Origin: a virus
Virus record (IMG/VR): IMGVR_UViG_3300046787_000438
Location: 88,412 to 152,411 of that record
DNA length: 64,000 nt
Direction: 5' to 3' (one strand)
Under the pieces are notes generated by a model. That model saw only the letters and a program-made list of their open reading frames with translations, searched no databases and was not told the DNA's origin. Positions 19,869 to 41,132 of the stretch are shown piece after piece (positions within the stretch are counted from its first letter, which is position 1; every line of letters starts with the position of its first letter). The translations under genes and the position numbers were made by a program.

Positions 19869-19928
19869 AAGCGGCATGCGGCGAGCGCGTTCCAAATCAA
19901 GGGCGTGCGCTCGTTGTATGCTACTATC

Positions 19929-20234
19929 ATGCGCTCACTAGAAGTACACCTGTTCGAAACCGACTCTGACCTAGACTCTGCTATCGCTAGCGGAGCTGTA
20001 CTACCAGAGCAACTCATCCGAACCGTATGCATCGATTGCCAAGGACCAGTAGGTTTTGCTGGACTGGAGTTCGAACCCTTCGTTGTAGTCATAGACGAGA
20101 ATGACCAAGACTGGTTAGCATGCACCGATTGCGCAAAAGCTATCCTCAACTACGTGGACACATTCTTTCCGCCAGTCACAAAAAGTCACTTCGCTCATCA
20201 CCTCACAGATGACGAAGAATTCGACGCCTTCTAA
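19929..20234 (+). CDS. CxxC-containing hypothetical protein
   Basis: CIDC, CTDC; leaderless TACTAT. Confidence 0.6.
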   Translation: MRSLEVHLFETDSDLDSAIASGAVLPEQLIRTVCIDCQGPVGFAGLEFEPFVVVIDENDQDWLACTDCAKAILNYVDTFFPPVTKSHFAHHLTDDEEFDAF

Positions 20235-20235
20235 C

Positions 20236-20300
20236 TGTATTTATTTTTTGTCCAACACGCCGTAGTTCGTGTTGCGTAATGTTATACCCTTTGCTATAGT
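20236..20300 (+). promoter_or_regulatory. 17-mer TGTATTTATTTTTTGTC copy 1 + promoter
   Basis: motif 20236-20252; TTGCGT 20272, TATAGT 20295. Confidence 0.8.
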
Positions 20301-20329
20301 TGGATTACCAATAGAAAGGGGTTTCCCAA

Positions 20330-20848
20330 ATGGGAATGGATGTTTATGGCAAGAACCCAGTAAATGAAACTGGGCAATACTTCCGCCGAAATGTGTGGGG
20401 CTGGCATCCTCTATGGGGTTATGTGGAAGACACTTACCCAGAGATTGCCGAACTGGTCGAACACGCACACAGCAACGATGGCGATGGCTTGGGTGCGAGA
20501 AATGCTAAGAAGTTAGCGAAACTTTTGATGAGCGATTACGAAACTGGCAAAGCCAAGGAGTATGTCGAGGAACGCAACAAGGCTATTTCAGAGTTGCCTT
20601 TTGATGAGTGCCGTCTATGTGCTGGCACAGGTATTCGCACAGACGAGATTGCGGTAAATGCTGGTATGCCAACTCAAGAGTTGCGACCAGACATTGCGAT
20701 TATCGTTGGTCGAACTCACGGAACTTGTAATGCTTGTAGTGGCCTAGGTAAGACAGAGCCTTGGGCAAGCAACTACTACCTAGAGCCAGACGACATAAAA
20801 GAGTTTGCCGAGTTCCTAGTGAACTCTGGTGGATTTGAGATTTGCTAG
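20330..20848 (+). CDS. MGMD-family protein with DnaJ-type zinc-finger insert
   Basis: MGMDVYG, CRLCAGTG, CNACSGLG. Confidence 0.75.
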   Translation: MGMDVYGKNPVNETGQYFRRNVWGWHPLWGYVEDTYPEIAELVEHAHSNDGDGLGARNAKKLAKLLMSDYETGKAKEYVEERNKAISELPFDECRLCAGTGIRTDEIAVNAGMPTQELRPDIAIIVGRTHGTCNACSGLGKTEPWASNYYLEPDDIKEFAEFLVNSGGFEIC

Positions 20849-20913
20849 ACCCTGACTAAAAGTCAAACACCTGAGCCAAGTGTCTAAACTGGCTCATCTT
20901 TTTGATTGGAAGT

Positions 20914-21006
20914 TGTATTTATTTTTTGTCTACCCCCGAGGGGCGACACGCCGAAAAAGATTTTCATAGATAGATTTGACATTCCGTAAAAAGTTTGCTT
21001 TACTTT
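20914..21006 (+). promoter_or_regulatory. 17-mer copy 2 + promoter
   Basis: motif 20914-20930; TTGACA 20976. Confidence 0.75.
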
Positions 21007-21055
21007 ACTTACTGACCAAAAGGGCAGACACGACACACGAAAGGGGCTAGTCGAA

Positions 21056-21670
21056 ATGACTACCACAGCAACAGCAACACCAAAGATTGTAGGCAACGCA
21101 CTCTACCTAGAGTTGGTTGGCGACACTACTATGCCCGAGGACAAACTACGCCAAATGCTCGGGTGGCAACACAAGGGAACTAAGCAGGTTCTCATGTTCC
21201 CCGAGTATCAGGACGACATGGGCAAGACCCACAGCGCAGTCATTATGACCAGAGTTATCACAGAGAACTCCCCACGCGCTCAATGGGACATGAACTACAT
21301 GGCTCGCAATCGTCCGAAGCCACAGTTGGCAGATAACGATTCTTACTACGCCAACTACCCAGAATACAGCAACGCCGAGTGGGACGCACTAACAAGTCGT
21401 GAGCAGTTTGAGGCTCGTAAGCGTGCCATAGCAATCCTGCTCAAGAATGTAGTGCTTGACACTTACTACTCCGAGCCAGACGCAGAGGGCAATCGCACAA
21501 CGCTCGCAGGGCAGGGTTGGGTTGTTCGTGAGGGAAAACCAATCGCAGTTGAGATTACTGACCAAGACATGACAGAACTTCACAGCGACAGCAAAACTCC
21601 ACAGGCAGTTATTCGCCGAATCAACAAAGTTCGCACGACACTTGACAAGTTCCCAGCAAAACTTGTATAG
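21056..21670 (+). CDS. hypothetical protein
   Basis: SD GAAAGGGG. Confidence 0.75.
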   Translation: MTTTATATPKIVGNALYLELVGDTTMPEDKLRQMLGWQHKGTKQVLMFPEYQDDMGKTHSAVIMTRVITENSPRAQWDMNYMARNRPKPQLADNDSYYANYPEYSNAEWDALTSREQFEARKRAIAILLKNVVLDTYYSEPDAEGNRTTLAGQGWVVREGKPIAVEITDQDMTELHSDSKTPQAVIRRINKVRTTLDKFPAKLV

Positions 21671-21714
21671 TTTCTAATAGATACACACGACACGACACGA
21701 AAGGGGCGAAAGCC

Positions 21715-22779
21715 ATGTATCAGCAAAAAGTAGTAGCAGAACACACGAACCCAGACCTAGCAGGATTGGACTTCGACAAACTGGCAGAGGCGGTTTCTAG
21801 CGCAGTATCAAGCAAGGCGTTTGGAATCACAACTTCGGTGATTGACGACTTGCTAACTCCAGCAGGACGAGCAACTATCAGAGTAAAGACAGGGGCAAAG
21901 CCTACTTCACCTATCTCACTTGATTCTCTTGTAGAATCGAAAGAGGAAAAGGCAGAGGTAAGCATGGAACTTGGTGAAACACTTGAGGGCGCAGAATCAT
22001 ACGCTCGTCCAAATGGCGACTTGTATTATGGTCGCAAGTGGGGCGAAAATGTAGATGTCGAAGTTCTACGCAAAGCACGAGAAGCAGGTGCTTATGTCAT
22101 GTTGTATGGAGTCCCTGGAACTGGTAAGACCGCTATGGTCGAAGCCGCTTTTCCAGATGAACTTTACACAATCTTGGGTTCGGGCGACACAGAGGTTTCT
22201 GACTTGGTGGGTGGCTATGTCCAGACCCCGAGTGGCGGTTTTGAGTGGGTGGACGGAGTTTTGACTCGTTCGGCACTTGAGGGCAAAGTTCTACTGATTG
22301 ACGAGATTGGTCTGATTGACCCAAAGGTTCTTTCGGTGGTCTATGGTCTAATGGACGGCAGACGAGAACTGACCATTAGCGCAAACCCAGAGCGAGGCAC
22401 TATCAAAGCACAAGAGGGTTTTTATGTCGTGTCAGCGACTAACCCAAATGTCGCAGGTGTTCGCTTGTCAGAGGCACTTCTATCTCGCTTCGCCATTCAG
22501 GTCGAAATGACAACTGACTGGGCGTTGGCAAAGAAGTTGGGTGTTCCGCAGAGTGCCGTTGTCGCTTCACAGAACTTGGCAAAGAAAATGGAGAATGGCG
22601 AAACTTCATGGTCGCCACAGTTCCGAGAGTTGCTTGCGTTCAGGGACTTGTCAAAGTTGTTCGGAACGAAGTGGGCGGTTCAGAACTTGCTCGCTTCTGC
22701 CCCAGAGATTGACAGACCAGTTGCGTCAGATGTATTCACCCGAGTATTCGGAGAGGCGATTCTGCCAGCCAAGATTTAG
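21715..22779 (+). CDS. MoxR/CbbQ/CobS-like AAA+ ATPase
   Basis: Walker A GVPGTGKT, Walker B LLIDEI, SATNP, SEALLSRF. Confidence 0.92.
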   Translation: MYQQKVVAEHTNPDLAGLDFDKLAEAVSSAVSSKAFGITTSVIDDLLTPAGRATIRVKTGAKPTSPISLDSLVESKEEKAEVSMELGETLEGAESYARPNGDLYYGRKWGENVDVEVLRKAREAGAYVMLYGVPGTGKTAMVEAAFPDELYTILGSGDTEVSDLVGGYVQTPSGGFEWVDGVLTRSALEGKVLLIDEIGLIDPKVLSVVYGLMDGRRELTISANPERGTIKAQEGFYVVSATNPNVAGVRLSEALLSRFAIQVEMTTDWALAKKLGVPQSAVVASQNLAKKMENGETSWSPQFRELLAFRDLSKLFGTKWAVQNLLASAPEIDRPVASDVFTRVFGEAILPAKI

Positions 22780-22807
22780 TAGGTGGTCGTGTCCCTACTG
22801 AAACCCC

Positions 22808-22869
22808 GAGAGTAGCGCAAGAAAAATGTTTGCGAAAACACTTGCGCTACTCTCAAAAGGGTGTATAGT
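22808..22869 (+). promoter_or_regulatory. 14-bp inverted repeat overlapping the VWA-gene promoter
   Basis: GAGAGTAGCGCAAG (22808-22821) / CTTGCGCTACTCTC (22841-22854); TTGCGC..TATAGT. Confidence 0.65.
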
Positions 22870-22908
22870 TAGACATACAACAACAAAGCCAGATGAAAGG
22901 GAAAGCAA

Positions 22909-24774
22909 ATGGCACACTACAGTTCTAAGGGAAAATCAAGACTTACCAAGCGCACTAGCGCAACTCCGTCAGAGTGGTATCGTGTTTGCTCACAGATTGG
23001 TCGTCTAGTAAACGACTGGTCATGGAGAAGCGACCTTGCCGTTTATGGTGGCGAGGATTCATGCGAGGGTCGTGCGATAGCAGGATACTACGCCGAGATT
23101 GCCGAGATTGAGATAGATGTTCGCAAGGCGTTTGGAGAGGGCGTTAGCCCAGACTTCGTTGGCGACCTAAACGAAAAGGCAACTCGCTACGAGTTCCCAA
23201 TGGTTTCAGGAATCCTATTCCATGAGGCACTTCACGCTCGCCACACAGGCTGGGACACAGCCTACTTGTCAGAGCAGTTTGAGAACATAGAAGCACAGGC
23301 GTTCATGGCACTTGAGGAATCTCGTATCGAATCTCGTGGCGTGAAAGAGCGACCAGAGAATCGTTTGTTCCTACGCACTTCGGCGTTGGACATGGCACTT
23401 GAGGGCGTAAACGAATCAGCACTCGCAAAACTTGGTGGCGACAAATGGATTACAGCGAATCTCGCAACTCTATCTATCGCACGAGTGGACGCAGGTGTTC
23501 TTGAGGTTTCAGACATCAGCGAGATTTACAAAGAGGTTGTCAGCGTTCTTGGTCAAGACTTGTTTGACGAACTACGCAAAGTTTGGATTGCGTTTCAGGC
23601 ACTAGGCGTTCCACAGATTGACGAGGCGATTGCGCTCGCTAAGAAGTGGGTCGAACTTTTGCGTGAGGCAGACCCAGAGGGCGAGCCAAACAAGGACGAA
23701 GTTGGCGACCCATTCGCAGAGGAATCTGGCGAGGGTGAGGGCGAGGGCGAAAGCGAATCTGGCGAGGGCAAGGGCGAAATGTCAGAAGCCATGAAGCAGT
23801 TGGTTTCTAAACTTTCAGATTCAGCGAGCAAGACAGAAGCAAACGCAGAGCAAGCACTTGGCGACCAAGAGCGCAAAGAGAAGTGGGACGAGGAATCAAA
23901 GGCACGCCAGAGCGAAGCGCAGAAAAACAATCAGCGCAAGCAGGAAGCCAAAAAGATTTTCGACAAGAGCCACAACGAAAGTGGTTCTGGTTCTAACTCA
24001 CGAGTAAGCGAACGCCGAGTGCCAACTGGCGCAGAGCGAGCCAGCGCAGTCCAGATTGCTAAGGCGTTGGAAAAGGCGAAGTATCGTGAGCGTTCTGTCC
24101 ATGTTCGCAAGCACCAAGCACCACAGGGTCGCTTGATTGCTCGCAACGCAGTCCAGAACAAGGCTATGGAATCTATGGGATTGCGTGGCGAGTTGCCAGC
24201 GTGGAAGTCAAAGACACGCAAGCACACAGACGACCCAACTCTCAAGATTGGTGTCATGGTGGACATCTCTGGTTCTATGGGTTCGGCTATGGAATCTATG
24301 GGAACTACGGCTTGGGTTCTATCGGAAGCAGGTCGCCGAATCCAAGCGGAAACCGCTATGATTTACTACGGCTCGGGTGTCTTTTCAACTCTACGCCGAG
24401 GTCAGCGATTGAGCGAGGTTTCTATCTACACCGCACCAGACGGAACGGAAAAGTTTGCCGAGGCGTGGGAAGCACTTGACGGCGAACTCGGATTGACTTT
24501 CACAGACGGCGTGCGTTTGTTGGTAATCGTGTCGGACGGAAACTACACACCGAAGCAGACCGAGAGTGCCAAGCAGATTCTCCAAGAGTGTAAACGGAAC
24601 GGCGTGGCAGTCTTGTGGATTACCCCGAAAGATTGCTACTCGCTTGGGGCAAGGCACATCATCAACGGCTCGGGTTGGGGAATCCACTTGGATAACCTTG
24701 ACACGAATGAGATTGCTTCACTTGTCGGCAAGACGGCAAGCGAAGCGTTGGGTAAGGTCGGCTCGCTCATGTGA
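22909..24774 (+). CDS. CobT-like zincin + VWA domain protein
   Basis: HEALH...LEESRIE, acidic G/E linker, MIDAS DISGSM, IVSDG. Confidence 0.88.
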   Translation: MAHYSSKGKSRLTKRTSATPSEWYRVCSQIGRLVNDWSWRSDLAVYGGEDSCEGRAIAGYYAEIAEIEIDVRKAFGEGVSPDFVGDLNEKATRYEFPMVSGILFHEALHARHTGWDTAYLSEQFENIEAQAFMALEESRIESRGVKERPENRLFLRTSALDMALEGVNESALAKLGGDKWITANLATLSIARVDAGVLEVSDISEIYKEVVSVLGQDLFDELRKVWIAFQALGVPQIDEAIALAKKWVELLREADPEGEPNKDEVGDPFAEESGEGEGEGESESGEGKGEMSEAMKQLVSKLSDSASKTEANAEQALGDQERKEKWDEESKARQSEAQKNNQRKQEAKKIFDKSHNESGSGSNSRVSERRVPTGAERASAVQIAKALEKAKYRERSVHVRKHQAPQGRLIARNAVQNKAMESMGLRGELPAWKSKTRKHTDDPTLKIGVMVDISGSMGSAMESMGTTAWVLSEAGRRIQAETAMIYYGSGVFSTLRRGQRLSEVSIYTAPDGTEKFAEAWEALDGELGLTFTDGVRLLVIVSDGNYTPKQTESAKQILQECKRNGVAVLWITPKDCYSLGARHIINGSGWGIHLDNLDTNEIASLVGKTASEALGKVGSLM

Positions 24775-25025
24775 GTCCCTTGCCCTAACGGAGTGCCTAA
24801 CCGATTGGATTGAGCATAGTGCCAGACCCCCCTTACTGGTCGCTCTCCTAACGGACGGGACACTAGAAGCCCCTATCAACTCTTTCCCCCATTGGTTGGT
24901 AGGGGTTTCGCCATACCCAAGACGGATAGGTGCTTGCGTGGTATTAGCGTGCTAGGGATTGACGGCTCGTCAGAAGTTCTCGTGAAAAGCAGGTGACAGA
25001 CTTTTCTGATTTTCGAGCCAGAGGT

Positions 25026-25090
25026 TGTATTTATTTTTTGTCGAAAACTTCGTATCTTGATTTGACATGACTAAAAAAGTCAGGTAAGTT
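25026..25090 (+). promoter_or_regulatory. 17-mer copy 3 + promoter
   Basis: motif 25026-25042; TTGACA 25062, TAAGTT 25085. Confidence 0.8.
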
Positions 25091-25142
25091 TGGAACTACC
25101 AAACAGGGACGAACAAGAAGTAGTCCCAAAGGGGGTGTCAGA

Positions 25143-25481
25143 ATGGCAACAGCCACTAAGACCCAAGACCAGACCCAGACGAAAGTCTTGGTCAAAGTTT
25201 CACGCAAGTTCGTTGCTATGTTGGACGAACTCAAAGATGTTCGTGCTACTTACAATCAGGCAGACAAGCGTATTGCCGAACTGCGTAAGGACATCTTTGC
25301 CGTAGTTGGCGAACAAGCCCAGACTCTAACCCACAATGGGGTTGAGGTCGCCGTAATCGTTGCCCAGACCAAAGAGGTTGTGGACATGGACTTGCTGAAA
25401 GCCAACTTCCCAGAGGTGTATCAGGCTTGCCTAGTGAGCAAGACCCAATACCCTATTCGTGCGGTATCTCGCTCGAAGTAG
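25143..25481 (+). CDS. hypothetical protein, paralog of 33399-33743
   Basis: TLTHNG.E.A...VD...L...FPE.Y.AC shared. Confidence 0.75.
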   Translation: MATATKTQDQTQTKVLVKVSRKFVAMLDELKDVRATYNQADKRIAELRKDIFAVVGEQAQTLTHNGVEVAVIVAQTKEVVDMDLLKANFPEVYQACLVSKTQYPIRAVSRSK

Positions 25482-25486
25482 TCGAG

Positions 25487-25517
25487 AGGGGCAGGGGGAA
25501 ATCCTTGCCCCTTTTTT
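25487..25517 (+). terminator. intrinsic terminator
   Basis: GGGGCAGGG/CCTTGCCCC stem + T6. Confidence 0.75.
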
Positions 25518-25529
25518 CTGAAGCGAGTA

Positions 25530-25603
25530 TGTATTTATTTTTTGTCTGCGATTCCGACCCGCCGTCAAAAGTTGTGGCGAATGTCGCAACGCCGTAGTAA
25601 GTT
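25530..25603 (+). promoter_or_regulatory. 17-mer copy 4 + promoter
   Basis: motif 25530-25546; TGGCGA 25575, TAAGTT 25598. Confidence 0.75.
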
Positions 25604-25629
25604 AGAACTATAAGAAAGGGGAGTTCACA

Positions 25630-25965
25630 ATGAGTGAGCCATTAGAACTACAAGACATAGCAGGACTTAGCCTGACGATTATTGGCGTGTTGATTGAGAG
25701 TTATGTGAACGAGGGATACGCCGACCCAACAATGTATAAGGCGTTGTCTGCGACTGCCGAACTAGCAGAGCAGTTTCAGGCACGAGCAAAGTATGACAAC
25801 GCACCTAGCGATGTTGTCGAATCTATCGCCGACTTGCTAGTGAATCTCAAACTCACAGCGATTGAGTGCGGAGAAGTTGTAGAGCGAATCATCAAAGAGC
25901 AGGGAATCGAAGTCAAGGGCGATTGGTCTGCCCACACTTGCGACGACCCAGAACACGACCACTAG
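25630..25965 (+). CDS. hypothetical protein
   Basis: SD AGAAAGGGGAG. Confidence 0.75.
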   Translation: MSEPLELQDIAGLSLTIIGVLIESYVNEGYADPTMYKALSATAELAEQFQARAKYDNAPSDVVESIADLLVNLKLTAIECGEVVERIIKEQGIEVKGDWSAHTCDDPEHDH

Positions 25966-25974
25966 GAGAGAATC

Positions 25975-26277
25975 GTGAATCTAAACTTTAGAACTGCCCT
26001 CGGAGAAATCTTGCGAGAGAAGCGACACGAGTTAGGTCTGAACTTGCGTCAGGTTTCCAGCAAAGGTTTCGTGGCACTCGGATACTTGAGTGAAGTTGAG
26101 CGTGGACAGAAAGACGCTTCATCAGAAACTCTAGAAGCGATTGCTCAAGGCTTGGGCGTAGAAGTTTACGAACTTGTCGTAGAAGCAGGGTTGCGGATGG
26201 CAAATGCCCCAGACAGCCCAGAAAGTCTTTTCACTCGGAACGCCGATTGGTCAAAGCAATACGCCGACCTCTCATAG
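25975..26277 (+). CDS. XRE-family regulator, ClgR/PopR-like
   Basis: LGEILR..R...LRQVS....VALGYLSEVERGQKDASSE.L.AI. Confidence 0.85.
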   Translation: MNLNFRTALGEILREKRHELGLNLRQVSSKGFVALGYLSEVERGQKDASSETLEAIAQGLGVEVYELVVEAGLRMANAPDSPESLFTRNADWSKQYADLS

Positions 26278-26295
26278 CCCCGATAGCCACAACTC

Positions 26296-26331
26296 AAAGC
26301 CCCTAAGCAGATTGCTTGGGGGTTTTGTTTT
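26296..26331 (+). terminator. intrinsic terminator
   Basis: GCCCCTAAGCA/TGCTTGGGGGT stem + T tract. Confidence 0.75.
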
Positions 26332-26356
26332 GCCCGATTATTTTGCGCCGTGCGTC

Positions 26357-26430
26357 TGTATTTATTTTTTGTCGCAGAGTTTTCGCCACGAACGATTTTG
26401 GTTTGCCAAATGTCGGTAGCAGGGTATAGT
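26357..26430 (+). promoter_or_regulatory. 17-mer copy 5 + promoter
   Basis: motif 26357-26373; TTGCCA 26403, TATAGT 26425. Confidence 0.8.
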
Positions 26431-26457
26431 ATCGAACTATCAAAGAAAGGGGACAGA

Positions 26458-26712
26458 ATGTCCAGCAACTATCCAGAGGGGTCAATGCGTGGTTCGGGTA
26501 TCTATGCCGAGGACTACACAGGAACTTTTTATTGCTCGGCTTGTGATGATGAATACTCGCTAGATGGAACTACTGACGATTGGGGCTACAACGCTTCAGC
26601 CGAATGTCCAGACTGCGGTGCGACTTTGGAGGTAGAACTTCCAAGCCGAGAAGAACGAGATGAGGACGCTGATTACGATTCTTATCGTGATAGCCAAATG
26701 GATTGGAACTAA
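26458..26712 (+). CDS. zinc-ribbon protein
   Basis: CSAC, CPDCG; SD AGAAAGGGG. Confidence 0.75.
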   Translation: MSSNYPEGSMRGSGIYAEDYTGTFYCSACDDEYSLDGTTDDWGYNASAECPDCGATLEVELPSREERDEDADYDSYRDSQMDWN

Positions 26713-26713
26713 A

Positions 26714-26950
26714 ATGAGTCGTATCGCAAGAGAAAACCCAGAAGCAACATACGAAGAACTTTTTGATTTAGGACTGCGTGGAAGCGTGCGGGTCAGAGAG
26801 GGAGAGCAACTCCACCAATACGATTGCCGTCAATGCGGAGAGATTGTAATGGTAGACCAAGAGCAACACGAACGCTTACAGTATTTCCGTAGCCACCCAA
26901 AAGAGTTTGGGACTAGAACGCCAAAGTGCGGAGATTGTTGGGTGAACTAG
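26714..26950 (+). CDS. zinc-ribbon protein
   Basis: CRQCG, CGDC. Confidence 0.7.
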   Translation: MSRIARENPEATYEELFDLGLRGSVRVREGEQLHQYDCRQCGEIVMVDQEQHERLQYFRSHPKEFGTRTPKCGDCWVN

Positions 26951-27043
26951 CCCACCAAAGTCTTCCCCCGAATAATCAGGAACAGAGATTCCGATTCGGG
27001 GGATTTTCTTTTGTCTGGTGCGTTTTTATTTTTTAGGTTTGGG

Positions 27044-27118
27044 TGTATTTATTTTTTGTCCAGCTTCGACACACGCTCGCGGGATTGGTTTGCGGTTTGC
27101 TAGCGCTCGCCGTATGAT
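27044..27118 (+). promoter_or_regulatory. 17-mer copy 6 + promoter
   Basis: motif 27044-27060; TTGCGG 27090, TATGAT 27113. Confidence 0.8.
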
Positions 27119-27149
27119 TAGATTGTTCACAAAAGGAAGGGGTTCCCAA

Positions 27150-27539
27150 ATGGGTTCACGAACAGAATGGATTATCAAGACGAACACTAGCGATAGTGCG
27201 CTTCACCTATACAGCCACTATGGTGGAGAGTCAAAGTTTGAGGATACACAGCAAGCGCTATTCAAGGCTCAGCCTCGCTGGAACGACATTAGTTATGGCG
27301 CTCGTATCTTCACTAGCCAAATTATTGGCAACGATTGGGGCAGCGAAACTGGATTCGGCATTGCCATTGGTAATGACACAGACAACATGTTTGAGGAGAG
27401 TTACTTTCACGCCGTCATTGACTTTCCAAATCAGTTAGTTACTTTCGGTTCTATGACTTGGACTTTTGATGAGTTCGTGGTTGCCGACAACTTTCAAGAG
27501 ATTCTGGTTGAGGAGTATTGGGCAGAGGTGAGCGTCTAA
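27150..27539 (+). CDS. hypothetical phage protein
   Basis: MGSR..LYSHYGG...RWND.SYGARI...ETGFGI; SD before ATG 27150. Confidence 0.75.
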   Translation: MGSRTEWIIKTNTSDSALHLYSHYGGESKFEDTQQALFKAQPRWNDISYGARIFTSQIIGNDWGSETGFGIAIGNDTDNMFEESYFHAVIDFPNQLVTFGSMTWTFDEFVVADNFQEILVEEYWAEVSV

Positions 27540-27829
27540 TGGGCGCACTTCACGCTAACGCCATTGCCGCCGATACAGCGATTCCACTAGAGAAACAACT
27601 GGAGTGGCACTTACAAGGTAATCACTTTCCGCCGATTCCAAAATCTATGGTCATTCCATGCGAGGAAGCGATTCAGGCTTTCTGGGAAGATGACTTAGAG
27701 AGGTTGATTAGTCTTCCAGATGGAGTTGGATACAAAGGTTTGACAGTTGCCCCTGCGAGGGCGATTATTATCGAACACCACCTAGACGCCTGGTGCGTTG
27801 AGTATGACGAAGAGGATTCAGACTTCTAG
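27539..27829 (+). CDS. hypothetical phage protein
   Basis: WHLQGNHFPPIP...IIEHHLDAW. Confidence 0.7.
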   Translation: MGALHANAIAADTAIPLEKQLEWHLQGNHFPPIPKSMVIPCEEAIQAFWEDDLERLISLPDGVGYKGLTVAPARAIIIEHHLDAWCVEYDEEDSDF

Positions 27830-27851
27830 TCAATAAGAGATAGACCCCGTC

Positions 27852-27960
27852 AGCGATTAGCATTGACGCTAATCGCTTTCGGCTTGCTAGGGTTTATCCC
27901 CCTTTTCCCTAGCATGCGGGTAGCAGATTCCCCCCTTTTCTGCTACCCGCTTTTCTTTTT
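27852..27960 (+). ncRNA. three tandem hairpins with C-rich loops (candidate 3'UTR-derived sRNA/terminator)
   Basis: stems 27852-27877, 27886-27913, 27916-27950 + T tract. Confidence 0.45.
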
Positions 27961-27995
27961 GCCGTTTTGTTTTTCTTTTTTTTTGTTTTACAAAG

Positions 27996-28069
27996 TGTAT
28001 TTATTTTTTGTCTGTCAGATCAAAGCGCCGTTCGCAAAGGTGGAAAATGTCAGAGGATTTTAGTAAAGT
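27996..28069 (+). promoter_or_regulatory. 17-mer copy 7 + promoter
   Basis: motif 27996-28012; TGGAAA 28041, TAAAGT 28064. Confidence 0.75.
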
Positions 28070-28107
28070 TGTAGTAGTTGGAAGTTCCAACAGATAAGGG
28101 GGCAGAG

Positions 28108-28470
28108 ATGCCAAAGACAGCAGTCATTGTGACTACCAAGGCGGAGGTCAGCATTATTGACATTGCCGAAGGTTCACTAAAGAAATTACAAAGCGCCGTA
28201 GATGGCTTGATTCAGCCAATCGACCTAGACGCAAATGTGACTATGTGGGTGAACGAAGAGGGCTTGCTACGCAGTGACCTTGAGATGAACGACATTGCCA
28301 CAAGCCTTTACGCTCAAATGTATGACATCACTAACCCACTAATGGGAGATGTTGTCTTCACTGGTGGCACAGATGGAGAGGGCGAAACGCTCGGACTAGG
28401 CGACGACTATGTGAACGCAATCTACGCCCTAGTCGATAACTACAAACAGGTTATGTCGCAGTTCGCATAA
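28108..28470 (+). CDS. DUF3846-like protein
   Basis: LKKLQSAVDGLIQ, MWVNEEG, N.IAT.L, L.GDVVFTG. Confidence 0.8.
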   Translation: MPKTAVIVTTKAEVSIIDIAEGSLKKLQSAVDGLIQPIDLDANVTMWVNEEGLLRSDLEMNDIATSLYAQMYDITNPLMGDVVFTGGTDGEGETLGLGDDYVNAIYALVDNYKQVMSQFA

Positions 28471-28483
28471 CTAACAAAGACAC

Positions 28484-28516
28484 AGCCCCTCGCAGAAATG
28501 CGGGGGGTTTCTTTTT
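28484..28516 (+). terminator. intrinsic terminator
   Basis: CCCCTCGCA-GAAA-TGCGGGGGG + T tract. Confidence 0.75.
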
Positions 28517-28548
28517 ACCCTAAACAAAAACTTTACGCGCTCGCGGGG

Positions 28549-28623
28549 TGTATTTATTTTTTGTCAAGCTGCCGTATTATGCGCCGTGAAAAGTTTGCGC
28601 TTGTCAGAGGTTGGTGGTAGGTT
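28549..28623 (+). promoter_or_regulatory. 17-mer copy 8 + promoter
   Basis: motif 28549-28565; TTGCGC 28595, TAGGTT 28618. Confidence 0.8.
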
Positions 28624-28646
28624 TGGAACAAGGAAAGGGGACAGAG

Positions 28647-28883
28647 ATGTCAATGCTAAAGACTAAGAACTACAACGCAGAGTTTGCGTTCGAGCAAGTC
28701 ATTCGCCTAGTAGGTGGCGCAAGCGAGTATGGCGACAGCACCAAGGCTAGTATCTGGGCAGAGTGCCACAACAACGAAACTATCGAGATGTTGGCGGGTA
28801 TGTATCTGGTTGGTTCATCAGAGCGTGCGGAACGCAACCTTGCTCGTCTAAACGATAAGTTGCGACAGGTATTCGGTATCTAA
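28647..28883 (+). CDS. hypothetical protein
   Basis: SD GGAAAGGGG. Confidence 0.7.
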   Translation: MSMLKTKNYNAEFAFEQVIRLVGGASEYGDSTKASIWAECHNNETIEMLAGMYLVGSSERAERNLARLNDKLRQVFGI

Positions 28884-29230
28884 TGGCTATGACTTATCAA
28901 GAGCGTAAAGCCAAGGGCTTGCGACAGCGTGCGGAGTATCGTAATCGTCTACACCACGCAGAACACCTTGCCGTAATGTTTCGTGGGTTCGGTATTGGAT
29001 TTAGTTTTATTACAGTAATGACAGCCGTTGCTGGAGTTCACGGAACTTTAGCGATTGCGTTGTTCATTATGTTTATGTTGATTGCTGGTTCAGGTTTTAT
29101 TGGCGCAGAACACATTATGTTTTGGGCAGAGCAAAGCCGTTATCCAAAGAGTCGCCGTAGAACTTTACGAAGCGAGTTCGCAGATGAGTGGCGTAGATTT
29201 AGACAGTACCGAAAAGTAGAAAAGGGTTAG
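28883..29230 (+). CDS. two-TM membrane protein
   Basis: hydrophobic core; TAATG coupling. Confidence 0.7.
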   Translation: MAMTYQERKAKGLRQRAEYRNRLHHAEHLAVMFRGFGIGFSFITVMTAVAGVHGTLAIALFIMFMLIAGSGFIGAEHIMFWAEQSRYPKSRRRTLRSEFADEWRRFRQYRKVEKG

Positions 29231-29232
29231 AA

Positions 29233-29700
29233 GTGAAAATGGTAACGATAGGTGACTCGGTTGCCTCGCTAGAAGTTAGAAATAACGCAGACAATACTGG
29301 ACTAGAACTAGAAGTTTGGGTCACTAAGCGTGTTGGCTCGTTCTATGCTCTATTGGGCTACGGAGTATTCGGAGTGCCATTAGGCATGAGTGAAGTAGAT
29401 TTCTACACAGATACCCTATACCCGATTATGAAGAGCGCACCCCTCACCACAAGTCAGCCAAGCCGAATGGCGTTGGATTTTGATGGCTCTATGAAAAGAG
29501 CAGAGGCACACATAATCAGCCATAGAAACAACCACCCATTCTCAAATAAAACTCGGTCTGTATCCCCTGAAGAGGGCTTAGCAAAAATGCTAGGCGCAGG
29601 GGCAAAATACTTGACTATTTTGGCGGAGATAAATGGAGTTACGCCACGCACTATGGAAACTATGCGTAAGAGGTCAAAAGAGTATTACGCAAAACAATAA
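29233..29700 (+). CDS. hypothetical protein with C-terminal HTH-like segment
   Basis: ILAEINGVTPRTM. Confidence 0.65.
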   Translation: MKMVTIGDSVASLEVRNNADNTGLELEVWVTKRVGSFYALLGYGVFGVPLGMSEVDFYTDTLYPIMKSAPLTTSQPSRMALDFDGSMKRAEAHIISHRNNHPFSNKTRSVSPEEGLAKMLGAGAKYLTILAEINGVTPRTMETMRKRSKEYYAKQ

Positions 29701-29795
29701 GAGTTAGCCCCCCACTAACAAAAGCCCCCATTATGTTCATTCATAGTGGGGGTTTTGTTTTGCTCGAAGCGTTTTGTGTTTTTTTACACTCGCCG

Positions 29796-29879
29796 TGTAT
29801 TTATTTTTTGTCTATATGTGGGGCAACTTTTTACGGAGCGCCGTAAGATGTTTGATTTATTTGGTTTATAGGATACGAT
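29796..29879 (+). promoter_or_regulatory. 17-mer copy 9 + promoter
   Basis: motif 29796-29812; TTGATT 29852, TACGAT 29874. Confidence 0.8.
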
Positions 29880-29902
29880 TGAACTACATAGAAGGGGAGC
29901 AA

Positions 29903-30589
29903 ATGCTAGTAAACAACAAAATGATGTCTTATAGGACTACACCGACTGAAAAATTGCTGGGCACAGTAAACAAGTATGCCGTGATTGGCTACCTAGAGGG
30001 AATAAAGACTTTAGTTTCAGATAGCGAAACACTAATCAAGGCGCAGGAGCAGAAGTTCACTGACGCAATAGTAAAAGCGGAGGCGCAAGTTTCTGAGTGG
30101 GAAGCCGAGTATATTCAACTACATACAAAGGCATTGCGAGCAGAACTTAAGCGTAAACTCGAAGCACCGACCAGCGCTACTCATTGGCTGAGTGCCGAGG
30201 AGATTCGTCTGCCTATCAGAGATGAAGTAATCTCTAACGAGATTGCTGAACTTTTAAAGCGCCGCCCTGATTATCGAACTTATCAGATTGCTAGGGGAGA
30301 TGTCGGAGCGCCTCATGACATTCAGTATTCTAGAGCGTGGAGCAAAGGCAATAAGACTTTGGTAGGTATAAATAGACTCACCACGCGCCGTGTGGAGCAG
30401 TGGCAAGCCTCACTAGATAGTCTGATTTCTGACCTAAAGGATAGAAACAAGCAAGAAGTTTACATAGCGCAGGTTATGGAACTCAAGCGCACCACAGCAA
30501 CTATTCTTGCGAACTGGGGTATAGATACCACCAAGACTGAGCGCAAGGACAGGGATAAACCAAAGCCACGAAGCAAAACTAAAAAGTAA
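29903..30589 (+). CDS. hypothetical coiled-coil protein
   Basis: SD GAAGGGGAG before ATG 29903. Confidence 0.7.
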   Translation: MLVNNKMMSYRTTPTEKLLGTVNKYAVIGYLEGIKTLVSDSETLIKAQEQKFTDAIVKAEAQVSEWEAEYIQLHTKALRAELKRKLEAPTSATHWLSAEEIRLPIRDEVISNEIAELLKRRPDYRTYQIARGDVGAPHDIQYSRAWSKGNKTLVGINRLTTRRVEQWQASLDSLISDLKDRNKQEVYIAQVMELKRTTATILANWGIDTTKTERKDRDKPKPRSKTKK

Positions 30590-30602
30590 CAACCAAAGAC
30601 CC

Positions 30603-30636
30603 AAGCCCCGCTAGATTTCTGGCGGGGTTTCTTTTT
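30603..30636 (+). terminator. intrinsic terminator
   Basis: CCCCGCTAGA/TCTGGCGGGG + T tract. Confidence 0.75.
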
Positions 30637-30649
30637 ATCGTGCTATTCG

Positions 30650-30724
30650 TGTATTTATTTTTTGTCTGAAGCCCGCCGCAACTTTTGATGAGAGTTGCGA
30701 AGTGTCACAGACCTAGGGTAAGAT
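30650..30724 (+). promoter_or_regulatory. 17-mer copy 10 + promoter
   Basis: motif 30650-30666; TTGCGA 30695, TAAGAT 30719. Confidence 0.75.
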
Positions 30725-30752
30725 TTAAGTATCAAAGAAAGGGGAAGCGATT

Positions 30753-30968
30753 ATGGCAAAGCCAAGCGTTTCAGCAGTAAAAGAATGGGACACAGTTTAC
30801 GAGAGTGACCTAGTCGAACTCGCAGTAGGGACAGCAGTATTTGCCGAGGACTACTGGCGTATGACGAATGTTGTTACTGGCAAGAAGAAGTATTTCTATG
30901 GCGAACTTGCGTGGGCAGATTCACGCCGAGAAGCAAGCGACCTAGACTTTGAGGCGTGGAACGTATGA
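30753..30968 (+). CDS. hypothetical protein
   Basis: SD AGAAAGGGG; KKKYFYGE.AW.D..R. Confidence 0.7.
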   Translation: MAKPSVSAVKEWDTVYESDLVELAVGTAVFAEDYWRMTNVVTGKKKYFYGELAWADSRREASDLDFEAWNV

Positions 30969-31138
30969 ACGAGTTGAAGCGTTGCCCAAAGTGCGCTGGA
31001 CACATTCCGAACAACAAGACCCCTGGGGCATACCCTGGTGCGATTTCACGCCGAGACAACACGACAGAGATTTGTTCAGCGTGCGGAACAATGGAAGCGC
31101 TGGAAGATTTCTTTGAGCGTGAAAAGGTTGGTGCGTAA
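30965..31138 (+). CDS. small zinc-finger protein
   Basis: CPKC...YPGAISRRDN.TEICSACG..EA. Confidence 0.75.
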   Translation: MNELKRCPKCAGHIPNNKTPGAYPGAISRRDNTTEICSACGTMEALEDFFEREKVGA

Positions 31139-31281
31139 TGGCAACAACCTTAGAGCAGACAACTTGCTACAAGTGCGAAGCCGAGATTGAGGCAGAGGTT
31201 GGGCAGGTTCACCCTTTGTGTTCAGAGTGCCAAGACGATTTCGATAGTTGGTTCAATAGCCAGTTAGGAATGTTCAAGTGA
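31138..31281 (+). CDS. small zinc-finger protein (not in ORF track)
   Basis: TAATG coupling; CYKC...HPLCSEC. Confidence 0.65.
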   Translation: MATTLEQTTCYKCEAEIEAEVGQVHPLCSECQDDFDSWFNSQLGMFK

Positions 31282-31481
31282 GCAAGCAAGTATTTTTTGT
31301 TATTGGCGTTGATTTAGATGACAAAGAGGTTTTTATCGCAGATGACACTTATTCAGCGCGGTTCAGCGAAGACGAGCAAGTCTGGGACACCGACATAAAC
31401 GAATGGGTTGAAGATGAAGATAGGAAACACTATCTTGACGCATTAGACCTTTTGAACAATAAAAAGTTAGCAAGAGATTAG
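31278..31481 (+). CDS. acidic hypothetical protein
   Basis: GTGA coupling. Confidence 0.65.
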   Translation: MSKQVFFVIGVDLDDKEVFIADDTYSARFSEDEQVWDTDINEWVEDEDRKHYLDALDLLNNKKLARD

Positions 31482-31569
31482 ATTTCTGCCCCCCCCCCCT
31501 AAAAGAAAAAGCGCTCGCCGAAAGGGGGGCGTTTTTTTTTGCGTGCGGGAGATTTATTCGAGTCCCGTG

Positions 31570-31643
31570 TGTATTTATTTTTTGTCGAAGTTTAGGGGAG
31601 CGCCGTTGAGGAGTTTGCGTTTATCGTTGGTTGCTTGTATAGT
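31570..31643 (+). promoter_or_regulatory. 17-mer copy 11 + promoter
   Basis: motif 31570-31586; TTGCGT 31615, TATAGT 31638. Confidence 0.8.
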
Positions 31644-31687
31644 TATAGATGTCAGGAAAACTTGACACTAAGTAGGGAGATAGAAAA

Positions 31688-31912
31688 ATGAAGTTTTACA
31701 TTCGCAGAGCAGTAGTCGGAGTTATCGCAGTTCCAGTTGTCGCAGGTCTTTACACTTTTGCTTACCTATGGTTGGTAATCGCAGGGGGAGAGCCTAACGT
31801 TTCAAGTGAAGAAGTATTCAACAATGGGTTGTGGCTAGGCGCGTTGATTGCCGTAATGCTTACATTCTCACCGCAGGTTTCTAAGTTGCTAAACAGAATT
31901 GTGGGTGCGTAA
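31688..31912 (+). CDS. two-TM membrane protein
   Basis: hydrophobic helices; SD GGGAG. Confidence 0.7.
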   Translation: MKFYIRRAVVGVIAVPVVAGLYTFAYLWLVIAGGEPNVSSEEVFNNGLWLGALIAVMLTFSPQVSKLLNRIVGA

Positions 31913-32058
31913 TGAGCAACGCCGATTGGGCATTATTGTTTGGAGTAGTGAGCCTATCAGTTGGTTCATTCCTATTAGGTTTCGTGATTAGCGGATTGCC
32001 AAAGCGTGAGGGTCGTAATGGTCGCCACGCAAATGGCAGGGGTCGCCACACGAGTTAG
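31912..32058 (+). CDS. small membrane protein with GRH repeats (not in ORF track)
   Basis: TAATG coupling; TM helix then GRNGRHANGRGRH. Confidence 0.6.
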   Translation: MSNADWALLFGVVSLSVGSFLLGFVISGLPKREGRNGRHANGRGRHTS

Positions 32059-32157
32059 AGTTGTCCCCCTACAACAAAATAAGAAACCTCACGAGTGTTC
32101 ATTCCTCGTGGGTTTTCTTTTTGTTTGGGTTGGCGTTCGTTGTTTTTTTCTGCCGAG

Positions 32158-32242
32158 TGTATTTATTTTTTGTCGCGCTCGCTGCGGGCAACAACTCGCC
32201 GTTCGTGAAAAGTTTGGGAATGTCGTAGGTAGTTAGTAAAAT
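32158..32242 (+). promoter_or_regulatory. 17-mer copy 12 + promoter
   Basis: motif 32158-32174; TTGGGA 32214, TAAAAT 32237. Confidence 0.8.
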
Positions 32243-32283
32243 AGAACTATCCCAAAAGGGACAAAAGGAAAAGGGGAAACAGA

Positions 32284-32616
32284 ATGTCAAGAGTTGCTAA
32301 CTATCAGATAAATGGTTTGATTCAAAAGTTTCAAGAGTTTGTGAACTACAACGGAACTATTACTGCCGAGATAGATGACAAGGGGATTTACCGTATTACG
32401 CATTGGCGAACTACTATCCTCGAATACGATGTCTACAACCACCAGATTGTTTCGCTAACATACGGATACATTAGCCAGACAACCAGCACACTAGTCGGTC
32501 GTATCTTGCGCTCGCTACCGCAACCAGCCGTTGAGAACTATCTAGGCTATTTCTCACCGTCAGCCGAGAAGCGTCGCTTAGTGAAGATGTTGAACACTAG
32601 GGCTTACGCCTACTAA
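32284..32616 (+). CDS. hypothetical phage protein
   Basis: SD AAAGGGG; Y.SQTTS motif. Confidence 0.7.
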   Translation: MSRVANYQINGLIQKFQEFVNYNGTITAEIDDKGIYRITHWRTTILEYDVYNHQIVSLTYGYISQTTSTLVGRILRSLPQPAVENYLGYFSPSAEKRRLVKMLNTRAYAY

Positions 32617-32692
32617 CCACCAATACAAAGAAGCACCCGTCAGAAGTGGCGGGTGTTTTTTTATTTGTGCGGGAGATTTGTTTGCCGCAGCG

Positions 32693-32776
32693 TGTATTTA
32701 TTTTTTGTCTGAGGTGCGACACGGTTCGTGAAAAGTTTGGAATACGATTTGACTTTTGGTTCGATAGCGATAAACT
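32693..32776 (+). promoter_or_regulatory. 17-mer copy 13 + promoter
   Basis: motif 32693-32709; TTGACT 32749, TAAACT 32771. Confidence 0.8.
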
Positions 32777-32825
32777 TGAGTTATCAAGTAAACCGCTTGA
32801 TAGAGAAAGATAAAGGGGATACAAA

Positions 32826-33077
32826 ATGTCAGCAGTTCTAACCACCCAGAACATCGTTACCGTAGTTGCTAAGGTCGTAGACATCAACACAGGCGAAACC
32901 ATTGAGCCAGTTTACGAAGCATACGGATACGAGAAGTTTCAGGAGTTCGTGGACTTTTACCGCAAGCAGAACTACATCAACAAGATTGTTTGGGTTCGTG
33001 GCTTTGGATACAACGACGAGAACGGCGCAAGCCAAGTTCTAGCAACCGAGTTCGTTGGCGTTGGAAGTTTCGAGTAA
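32826..33077 (+). CDS. hypothetical protein
   Basis: SD AAAGGGG. Confidence 0.7.
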   Translation: MSAVLTTQNIVTVVAKVVDINTGETIEPVYEAYGYEKFQEFVDFYRKQNYINKIVWVRGFGYNDENGASQVLATEFVGVGSFE

Positions 33078-33190
33078 TGGAGACCCTAGAGAGCCTACTA
33101 GAGGGGGTAGCGTTTGAGATTGAGAACGAAACAGGAATACCGATAGAGGTTATCTTTGAGGGAAACCTAATCACCATCAAGCAAGGCTAA
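33077..33190 (+). CDS. small acidic protein
   Basis: TAATG coupling; METLESLLEGVAFEIE... Confidence 0.5.
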   Translation: METLESLLEGVAFEIENETGIPIEVIFEGNLITIKQG

Positions 33191-33200
33191 CCACAGAGAG

Positions 33201-33237
33201 AAGCCCCCAAGCCGAAAGGCTAGGGGGTCTTTCTTTT
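33201..33237 (+). terminator. intrinsic terminator
   Basis: GCCCCCAAGCC-GAAA-GGCTAGGGGGT + T tract. Confidence 0.75.
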
Positions 33238-33273
33238 GCCGTAGTTGGCTTTGGCGTTTTTTGTTCCCGTGCC

Positions 33274-33348
33274 TGTATTTATTTTTTGTCGAAACCGACA
33301 CGCCCAGCCGTAAAAAGATTTGACTTATTTTGGAATAGCGTTTAGGCT
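33274..33348 (+). promoter_or_regulatory. 17-mer copy 14 + promoter
   Basis: motif 33274-33290; TTGACT 33320, TAGGCT 33343. Confidence 0.8.
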
Positions 33349-33398
33349 GATTACATCAGCAAAAGTTGATACACACAAAAAGAAAAAGGGGCTACAAA

Positions 33399-33743
33399 AT
33401 GACCACCACCACCACCCAGAACGCAACCACCACCAAGGCAACCAAGGTTGTTCTTGAGCAGGTAAAGCAGTTGGTCGAAGTTCGTGCCGAGATTGCTCGC
33501 CTAGAGAAGATGAAGGTCGCATTGACCTCCCAGATTGAGGGCGTGTTTGGTGTAGACAAGGAAGCCAAGACTGCCGAGTTCACTACCTTGACCCACAACG
33601 GCATTGAGTTTGCTCGCATTGACCTACGCACTCGCAAGGGTGTAGATACCGAGAAACTTGCCGTAGAGTTCCCAGAAGCCTACGAGGCTTGCTTTGACCC
33701 AGAGATGACCAAGTATTTCCAGATTGTGAGCCTCTACAAGTAA
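33399..33743 (+). CDS. hypothetical protein, paralog of 25143-25481
   Basis: SD AAAGGGG; TLTHNGIEFA...FPEAYEAC. Confidence 0.75.
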   Translation: MTTTTTQNATTTKATKVVLEQVKQLVEVRAEIARLEKMKVALTSQIEGVFGVDKEAKTAEFTTLTHNGIEFARIDLRTRKGVDTEKLAVEFPEAYEACFDPEMTKYFQIVSLYK

Positions 33744-33756
33744 GCCACTAGCCAAG

Positions 33757-33789
33757 AAGCCCCTGCCGTTAGTTCGGTAGGGGTTTTTT
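33757..33789 (+). terminator. intrinsic terminator
   Basis: CCCCTGCCG/CGGTAGGGG + T6. Confidence 0.75.
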
Positions 33790-33826
33790 GCTTGCCGAGG
33801 CACTTGATTGGTGTCAAGGGGGGCTA

Positions 33827-33843
33827 GACAGAAAATAAATACA
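33827..33843 (-). promoter_or_regulatory. inverted 17-mer copy (1 mismatch)
   Basis: GACAGAAAATAAATACA = reverse complement TGTATTTATTTTCTGTC. Confidence 0.7.
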
Positions 33844-34117
33844 CAGGGCAGGGCTCTATTCACTCATAGGGCTTGCCCGTAGAGAGTTCCACCAGATAGA
33901 GCAGGGGCAGGACATACATAGACCACACAAGACCCATCAAGATAGTCGCCCACCATTCTTTAGCCCCTAGAAGCCTCATAGAAGCCACAGGCATAGCCTT
34001 AGCCACCAGATACCCACCAAGACCCCTAGAAGTCCACAGAGGCACTCATAGCCCAGAGCAGGGAGATAGCCACACAGAGGGGGGGGGTGTCTATTAGTTC
34101 ACAGTCATAGACATACA

Positions 34118-34187
34118 ACACATCACACATCACAGCCCAGAGCAAGAGAGCAACACACATCACACATCACACATCACACATCACACA
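34118..34187 (+). repeat. CACACAT tandem repeats within a repeat-rich non-coding block
   Basis: (CACACAT)x4 plus 6 nt at 34154-34187; ~2 units at 34118-34134. Confidence 0.9.
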
Positions 34188-34482
34188 AGCACTCAGGTAG
34201 AAGCACAGAGAAACTTTTTTATTGCTAGTGAAATGTTTGAAGCACATCAGTAATGAACGCAGACCCCTTCCGTTTTTGGAAACAAATCAACACGCACCGA
34301 AAATATACCGCTGCCTTCTCACCCGCCAAAAGCAGTAGACGTTAAGGTACTAAATCTTCCGTTACCGTACACTCCCCCTCTTTTAATAAACGCCCCTACC
34401 CCCCTTCTTTTTGGAGGACAAAAAATTTCCAAAAAATTTTTTAAAAAATTTACGTAAAGGTGCCTAGTGGTAGGATTAGCTC

Positions 34483-39861: not shown

Positions 39862-39862
39862 C

Positions 39863-40783: not shown

Positions 40784-40790
40784 GAGTGTC

Positions 40791-41123: not shown

Positions 41124-41132
41124 TATAAGTTC

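Follow-up and report, generated by a model that had tools for sequence, protein, structure and literature searches.

A 14.1-kb segment of a large viral genome has been stripped of nearly all short words of the kind that Type II restriction enzymes recognise. The window analysed here is a stretch of 64,000 nucleotides, the final 64 kb of the 152,411-bp viral contig IMGVR_UViG_3300046787_000438 (genome label G000), and the restriction-site-free island, delimited by counts of 4-bp palindromes, lies at positions 20236-34338 of this window, or 9.3% of the genome. We propose that the island is a module of genes expressed before the phage has protected itself, rid of host Type II targets and delivered into the cell in the ordered manner of phage T5, and we give this reading as a whole a probability of about 0.6. 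Its parts differ in strength: a restriction-proofed early module is very probable, and first or paused entry as its cause has about even odds.

The purge is evident from simple counting. Between positions 20160 and 34338, the nine palindromes AATT, ACGT, AGCT, ATAT, GATC, GGCC, GTAC, TGCA and TTAA occur 18 times in total, against ~539 expected from their density across the other 138 kb. An earlier note on this DNA, made by reading the letters, had described a sharply bounded, palindrome-poor island of ~14 kb with only AGCT at 27062 and 28567, GATC at 28018, GTAC at 29206, ACGT at 30961 and 31797, GGCC at 20741 and no TGCA; these counts are exact, and the island is stronger than was claimed, as AATT (5 vs 63 expected), ATAT (3 vs 71) and TTAA (3 vs 51) are purged too. 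CTAG, TCGA and GCGC are retained as the note had said, but CATG, which it also took to be retained, falls to 0.52x, with TATA and CGCG likewise partly depleted (~0.29x each). The borders are sharp (20152/20236 on the left, 34303/34339 on the right): dense words end at 20152 and restart at 34339. The flanks hold 30-55 such sites per kb, and one stretch without any of the nine words extends over 6,321 bp. The effect is seen in no other 2-kb bin across the whole genome.

The depleted words are of the type that restriction enzymes recognise. When all 136 strand-merged 4-mers are ranked without preselection, palindromes take the first 11 places for depletion. Longer words, 5-bp ones, interrupted palindromes and asymmetric Type IIS-like words among them, follow the same trend (observed/expected): GGWCC 0/21, GCATC 2/42, GTCTC 2/26, GCWGC/GCAGC 5/48, CCWGG 4/32, CASTG 4/29, GGATG 3/21 and GGNCC 0/40, where we take GCATC to be an SfaNI-type and GGATG a FokI-type site. 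Palindromes of 6 bp built on retained cores are reduced to 16 from ~70 expected. Thirty depleted 5-mers are significant after Bonferroni correction, and more than 25 different Type II-like words are purged from the island. Asymmetric words are lost equally in both orientations (GATGC 1 vs 23 expected, GCATC 1 vs 19), with strand-symmetric depletion of GCATC, GCAGC, GTCTC, CASTG and CTCAG; selection therefore acts on duplex DNA, not on mRNA. The depletion is also far beyond anything codon usage can produce. The earlier note had named in advance, as evidence against its idea, a depletion no greater than codon usage would give; synonymous-codon shuffles of 23 island genes retain 303 +/- 13 sites under the island's own codon usage and 309 +/- 14 under that of the flanks, compared with 11 observed. 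In its words, its independence of codon choice and its strand symmetry alike, the purge fits avoidance driven by host restriction-modification systems. Separate from it is a genome-wide tier, CCGG being absent from all 152 kb (0 vs ~400 expected). GGCGCC and GCGCGC are likewise missing from the whole G000 genome.

The relatives of this virus can be traced through its large terminase (42300-43733, + strand; Pfam Terminase_6N and Terminase_6C), whose gene starts 22 kb 3' of the island's left border. The protein is 73% identical to that of DSL-LC01, a lake phage known from metagenome data alone and with unmapped termini (PMC10611076), 61-64% identical to those of the Microbacterium phages Zooman (64%), Big4 and Pumpernickel, and 46% identical to that of Gordonia phage Sixama. 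These relatives and two WhiB genes in the genome place G000 among the large actinophages and lead us to infer an actinobacterial host. A megablast search of the island against the phage collection returned no near-identical record.

Comparison with related viruses shows that the island is conserved across a clade. The AAA+ ATPase encoded near its left end matched 70 viral contigs, and in 29 of these the palindrome density falls two- to seven-fold ~1.5-2 kb 5' of the ATPase gene; at least 29 related metagenomic contigs bear an island. Contigs at 57-61% GC show no density drop. Four relatives fetched whole (G001, G002, G003 and G005) contain exactly one island each, of 13.9 kb in G001, 14.4 kb in G002 and 19.5 kb in G003 (14 of 16 palindromes purged, at 38.5% GC), that of G005 being weak. 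The syntenic place is the same: in the three co-linear genomes the islands lie ~19-26 kb 5' of the gene for the large terminase. The island and large terminase genes of G005 are ~39 kb apart, on opposite strands. The G005 record (L095-L103; 160.7 kb, rated 100% complete) is a wrap-around chimera of two strains, with its first 24 kb 80-85% identical to its last 24 kb. A single conserved gene marks the left border in the relatives, the border lying at its 3' end, and flanking and internal orthologues follow the same order in G001-G003 and in DSL-LC01. No island is present in DSL-LC01, Pumpernickel, Sixama or Zooman. In DSL-LC01 (L001, bases 1-50000; 55% GC), ATAT and TTAA are both absent from 50 kb.

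What varies is the list of words. Among the 29 loci there are 23 distinct purged sets, in which GGCC is purged at 26 of 29, GTAC at 25 of 28, ATAT at 23 of 28, TTAA at 22 of 29, GATC at 18 of 24, TCGA at 4 of 29 and CTAG at none; the depleted 5-mers overlap just partly between genomes. Genome-wide tiers differ too: G001 lacks CCGG and has no GATC where 537 are expected, and G002 and G003 are without such a ban. Differing purged sets fit selection by differing Type II restriction repertoires of the hosts. The purge is moreover polar, with only 2 of the 70 surviving sites of four islands falling in the promoter-proximal 45% (P about 1e-15). The left part could have been exposed longest; alternatively, it could hold older, conserved genes, with the right part turning over faster.

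These comparisons bear on a rival explanation, a recent acquisition from a palindrome-avoiding donor or an assembly chimera. Sharp borders and a 17-mer confined to the island, described below, would suit such an origin, a form of which, a recently acquired foreign element, the earlier note had named as one threat to its idea; however, the marks of a horizontal island, atypical composition and absence from relatives, are lacking. GC content is 47.8% in the island against 46.6% in G000 overall, the island is syntenic in all relatives examined, gene order is kept in G001-G003 and DSL-LC01, and at least 29 independent contigs carry islands whose purged sets vary while the borders stay. Given this synteny, the number of contigs and the differing sets, we regard foreign insertion or artefact as excluded on comparative grounds, and an origin of this kind as scarcely credible. 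The core of the earlier note, namely that this DNA is kept free of restriction targets owing to its exposure at a stage when the phage still lacks protection, is strongly supported, because the purge is specific to restriction words, strand-symmetric, beyond codon usage and conserved in position across the clade while its word content varies among relatives; the other part of that claim, first injection or a long terminal repeat, remains a proposal.

The island is built as an array of cassettes. Fourteen exact copies of the 17-mer TGTATTTATTTTTTGTC (20236-33290, + strand) each open a cassette, starting at 20236, 20914, 25026, 25530, 26357, 27044, 27996, 28549, 29796, 30650, 31570, 32158, 32693 and 33274, and there are no exact copies outside the island in the 152-kb genome. 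The order of elements is constant: the intrinsic terminator of the preceding cassette, the 17-mer, a -35-like box (GCCGT..AAAAG-TTTG), a -10-like box (TAnnnT), an AAAGGGG ribosome-binding site and one to four open reading frames (ORFs), all 14 cassettes being on the + strand. Cassettes that share one strand, each with a terminator, promoter-like -35 and -10 boxes and a strong ribosome-binding site, give the island the look of an early region. Relatives have their own invariant T-rich cassette motifs, GGTATTTATTTTTTCTG in G002 and ATTTTTCATTTTTTCCAG in G003. The array is closed by an inverted copy of the 17-mer with one mismatch (33827-33843, - strand), just past the last terminator; in G001 an inverted motif copy occupies the equivalent site, ~550 bp before the right border.

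Part of the few surviving sites adjoin this motif. The earlier note had remarked that some survivors lie just downstream of a 17-mer, and 4 of 16 (27062, 28018, 28567 and 29814) do follow one by 2-6 bp (P = 4.5e-5); pooled over four genomes, 7 of 77 survivors are so placed against ~1 expected. AGCT stands at +2 after the motif twice in G000 and once in G002. The clustering would fit a motif-bound protein that shields the adjacent DNA, and the Xre-type HTH_3 regulator encoded within the island (25975-26277, + strand; Pfam PF01381, E = 5.5e-8) is a candidate binder of the 17-mer.

The note had also equated the borders of the purge with those of the 17-mer array. This holds on the left, where the first 17-mer begins at 20236, but not on the right, where the purge continues for ~1 kb beyond the last + strand copy (33274), taking in the last gene and the 550-bp non-coding stretch behind it. 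On the left, the stop codon of a conserved ORF (19905-20234, + strand; orthologues in the same place in G001-G003) abuts the island, whose border is 1 bp past that codon with no non-coding DNA between. On the right, the last island gene (33399-33743, + strand; 114 aa, with an orthologue in G001) is followed by an intrinsic terminator at ~33762-33790 and by a C+A-rich non-coding tail of 550 bp (33791-34338) with CACACAT and CATAG-type repeats, which is still purged. This repeat-rich tail and the inverted 17-mer at 33827-33843 are candidates for a pause signal.

Across the right border itself lies a conserved non-coding element, GGAAACAA ... CCGCTGCCTTCTCACCCGCCAAAAGCAGT ... GGTACTAAATCTTCCG (34277-34375, + strand), which has a single copy in the genome. 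It is found in nine related contigs, in most of which palindrome density rises at that point. We nevertheless rejected the idea that it sets the boundary of the purge: the G003 island ends 4 kb short of the element, and between the two is an unpurged cassette (L092:11400-15600, from island end to border element) that encodes a DUF6421 protein (454 aa), a family-2 glycosyltransferase and a YspA/SLOG-domain protein. As the G003 element is displaced past unpurged genes, the purge follows the motif-headed cassette array and not the border element. No known RNA was detected by Rfam or tRNA scans covering the border region and the window.

If the purge is conserved and selected, its confinement to so small a part of the genome calls for an explanation. 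For a phage, a cut at any point of its genome is as a rule lethal; with the purge limited to 9%, the other 91% must therefore be beyond the enzymes' reach while the island is exposed. We envisage the island as the early, pre-protection module of a lytic actinophage of ~152 kb, which selection would have rewritten to contain few Type II targets. It would be present in the cytoplasm, and transcribed by the host RNA polymerase, at a time when the host restriction enzymes are active and the remaining 91%, with several thousand such sites, is not exposed. The simplest route would be an ordered, paused delivery of the T5 kind in which the island comes first, possibly as a terminal repeat, and its products, among them many small acidic proteins and a conserved MoxR AAA+/VWA pair, would then neutralise restriction or let the rest enter. 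Words banned from whole genomes (CCGG here, CCGG and GATC in G001) would presumably be targets of enzymes against which the early functions are powerless.

The existence of the purge also indicates that the virion DNA is not generally protected, which bears on a second explanation: the whole genome may enter at once, its bulk shielded by virion modification or by co-injected coating proteins, with the island left bare for immediate transcription and avoiding both classical and modification-dependent restriction. The genome does encode many 2OG-Fe(II) oxygenases, glycosyltransferases adjoin the island in relatives, and the survivors beside the 17-mers look as if shielded by protein. Yet a modification made at replication would cover the island as well and render the purge needless, a DNA methyltransferase was not found (none of the three main Pfam families occurs in the genome), and no single phage mark can account for more than 25 purged words in sets that differ between close relatives. 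We consider this shielding unlikely. Ordered delivery would be the most economical account, because the methyltransferase families are missing and replication-time modification would include the island. A third explanation, that the island avoids early nucleases of the phage itself, destined to destroy host DNA, has a precedent in the proposal that T5 protein A1 is a restriction enzyme (bioRxiv 10.1101/866236), and an HNH endonuclease gene is located 5.5 kb left of the island. Dozens of specificities would be needed, however, the ~26 mostly tiny island proteins have no nuclease domain, and such sites abound in the remainder of the phage genome, all of which makes self-avoidance very improbable.

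A further possibility does not compete with ordered delivery, and would give it a physical basis: the island may be a long direct terminal repeat collapsed to one copy in the assembly, with its borders as the repeat boundaries. The terminase clade is one that packages direct terminal repeats, as seen in Zooman (64% identity) and Sixama (46%), whose repeats (17,079 bp and 1,702 bp, respectively) are 100% identical between the two ends. The dimensions are comparable: the island is 14.1 kb (9.3%), and the repeats of T5 and SPO1 measure 10.2 kb (record annotation) and 13.2 kb, the former holding the first-step-transfer DNA in its left copy. The position agrees as well, as the island lies ~8 kb 5' of the large terminase gene, and Zooman's repeat, made of ~40 small + strand genes, ends 5.6 kb 5' of its terminase gene; SPO1, with its terminase gene at 23 kb, has the layout of Zooman. 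The contig closes on itself into a circular assembly through a 127-bp overlap, as do collapsed-repeat genomes, although such an overlap is typically set by the assembler and not a true terminal repeat. A repeat boundary would also readily explain the unpurged auxiliary cassette of G003 just outside the island. On the other side, the Zooman repeat encloses the island with no match to its borders, no purge is seen in any of the known long repeats examined, and the left border falls 1 bp past the stop codon of a conserved gene with no non-coding DNA. A terminal repeat is possible, but less likely than not.

Zooman provides one view of what the ends might be. Its repeat covers the orthologues of ORFs 14991-15947 through 38251-38847, corresponding to ~14.9-38.9 kb of the window, and is larger than the island. 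The last of these genes (38251-38847, + strand) encodes a 198-aa helix-turn-helix protein, Sigma70_r4-like by Pfam, and its Zooman orthologue is the final gene in that phage's terminal repeat; its orthologue in G003 stands directly 5' of the large terminase gene, and it is probably the small terminase. At the opposite end, the DNA 5' of ORF 14991-15947 (14740-14990), a position that corresponds to Zooman's left physical end, is conserved and non-coding, with a box at 14766 (CCCTCACC..CAAAAAA) and, kept in four genomes, the block TACCCTACAATTGATGGAGAAGGCGGCC...AGTCCTCTCCCCAGTT; it may serve as a regulatory site or encode a small RNA. By eye, the right-border element and the CTCACC..CAAAA element at 14766 look like the repeat junctions of Zooman and Sixama. 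This likeness was rejected: an nhmmer profile search was unsupportive, and in a shuffle control the local alignment scored 24, compared with a mean best of 27.8 for shuffled queries. Contig ends were likewise discarded as a guide to the genome ends: they do not accumulate at the borders, and the ends of the loci are those of stored chunks and not of contigs. The Zooman terminase (L116 22688-27528) matches in two pieces, and its record annotates separate nuclease-domain and ATPase-domain terminase genes, which suggests that the gene is interrupted or duplicated.

Several observations weigh against ordered delivery of a purged early module. If the ends were like those of Zooman, each would be separated from the island by 4.5-5 kb of DNA that is not purged. 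There is no local purge in the first-step-transfer DNA of T5, the 13-kb repeat of SPO1 or the repeat of Zooman; first entry alone, therefore, does not yield the signature, which is not general to terminal repeats. A scan for consensus sigma-70 promoters found 14 where shuffled sequences give 15.5, so that these are not enriched. Finally, no known anti-restriction family or fold was detected among the island proteins by Pfam, PHROG and two structure models.

T5 calls for a closer comparison. Like its first-step-transfer DNA, the island is a block of ~8-9% of the genome with small, putatively early genes behind what may be host-type promoters, and it ends in a long, repeat-laden non-coding stretch. 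Unlike it, the island has lost 4-bp and 6-bp palindromes in general: in the T5 segment, 6-bp palindromes number 130 vs 139 expected and only EcoRI sites are missing. The earlier note had taken it as established that this leading DNA is depleted of restriction sites, which overstates the case, since there is no general palindrome depletion and the known evidence is genetic: only restriction or CRISPR targets inside the first-step-transfer DNA are vulnerable, and its products protect the rest (bioRxiv 10.1101/866236). In the T7-like Autographiviridae, a study of Murciavirus found that only Type I motifs in the first-injected region determine sensitivity, that region being variable and rich in anti-defence genes (PMC12455610). 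There the determinants are single Type I motifs over ~1-2 kb, whereas the island combines more than 25 Type II-like words, 14 kb and knife-sharp borders. The host-takeover module of SPO1 and the Zooman repeat resemble the island as multi-cassette arrays of small genes, 13-17 kb long and 5-10 kb 5' of the large terminase, and differ in that their palindromes are not depleted relative to their neighbourhood. Palindrome avoidance across whole phage genomes (Rusinov et al. 2018, PMC6286503) and, in the leading regions of plasmids, motif depletion (PMC13478746) share with the island the selective agent, host Type II restriction-modification, and the statistical signature; that of the island is regional and nearly absolute, atop the separate CCGG tier. 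The principle is known, and in the literature searched the regional, near-absolute, multi-enzyme and clade-conserved form, with lineage-specific words, is not described.

The island contains ~26 ORFs, mostly for small proteins, of which at least seven are very acidic (pI 4.1-4.4, net charge -7 to -18, 47-129 residues). Acidic products include those of ORFs 25630, 26458, 27150, 27539, 28108 and 31278. The first (20330-20848, + strand; orthologues in eight related contigs) encodes an acidic protein of 172 aa (pI 4.8) with conserved Cys pairs, whose AlphaFold2 model (pLDDT 83) has no fold match in the PDB. It is followed by a conserved 204-aa gene (21056-21670, + strand; orthologues in G001-G003 and 11 contigs, no Pfam or PHROG match) located 5' of a predicted AAA+/VWA pair. 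The latter consists of a MoxR-type AAA+ ATPase (AAA_5; 21715-22779, + strand; Pfam PF07728, E = 3.6e-21; PHROG 16448, E = 6e-50), kept in all relatives, and its putative partner, a 621-aa, possibly CobT/CoxE-like VWA protein (22909-24774, + strand), with a weak, sub-threshold match to Pfam PF05762 and an orthologue in DSL-LC01 annotated as a cobalamin biosynthesis (CobT-like) protein. Beyond the Xre-type regulator come an 84-aa zinc-ribbon protein of net charge -18 (26458-26712, + strand), a 129-aa acidic protein of net charge -14 (27150-27539, + strand; PHROG 31860, function unknown) and an acidic DUF3846 protein of net charge -13 (28108-28470, + strand; Pfam PF12957, E = 1.6e-17). The model of the 129-aa protein (pLDDT 86) has a best PDB match of Z = 4.0, corresponding to no known fold; the two confident AlphaFold2 models compared with the PDB, both by Foldseek and one by VIA-align, gave no match (best E = 0.2, Z = 4.0). 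Most island proteins have no family in Pfam and PHROG scans, and protein atlas matches are to viral hypothetical proteins only. A family search turned up no T7-like RNA polymerase, with its controls silent as well. T5 A1, A2 and dmp were not annotated among the island proteins in the Pfam/PHROG scans, direct comparison with T5 not having been made.

Elsewhere in the window, host-like redox genes are found between the island and the terminase gene (39280-41720), encoding a peroxiredoxin (AhpC/TSA), a thioredoxin-reductase-like flavoprotein and a heme oxygenase. Further on, a 1378-aa protein of the structural region (53586-57722) shows weak similarity to family S78 of prohead proteases.

A more specific version of ordered delivery can be sketched from these elements. 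The freshwater-type actinophages of this clade may have arrived at a two-step, T5-like delivery with unrelated machinery, in which the invariant T-rich 17-mers would load a protein that occupies the incoming DNA (hence the survivors 2-6 bp beside them), the inverted copy or array end would act as the stop, and the MoxR AAA+/VWA pair would release or drive in the remaining 91%. We put this forward as a doubtful, speculative scheme.

The extent of the purge, far beyond T5, SPO1 and Zooman, suggests an unusually intense pressure from 4-bp cutters or an unusually long exposed phase. If ordered delivery is true, sequence alone would mark the phage DNA that is exposed first, and entry order and genome ends would become predictable for uncultured phages. 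With so many unassigned and presumably early proteins close together, a good part of them small and very acidic, the island offers candidates for anti-restriction or host-takeover functions of a new kind. The purged sets, 23 of them in 29 relatives, would show directly which restriction enzymes count for host populations in nature; should the two-step scheme hold, the list of purged words in each virus would be a record of the Type II repertoire of its host population.

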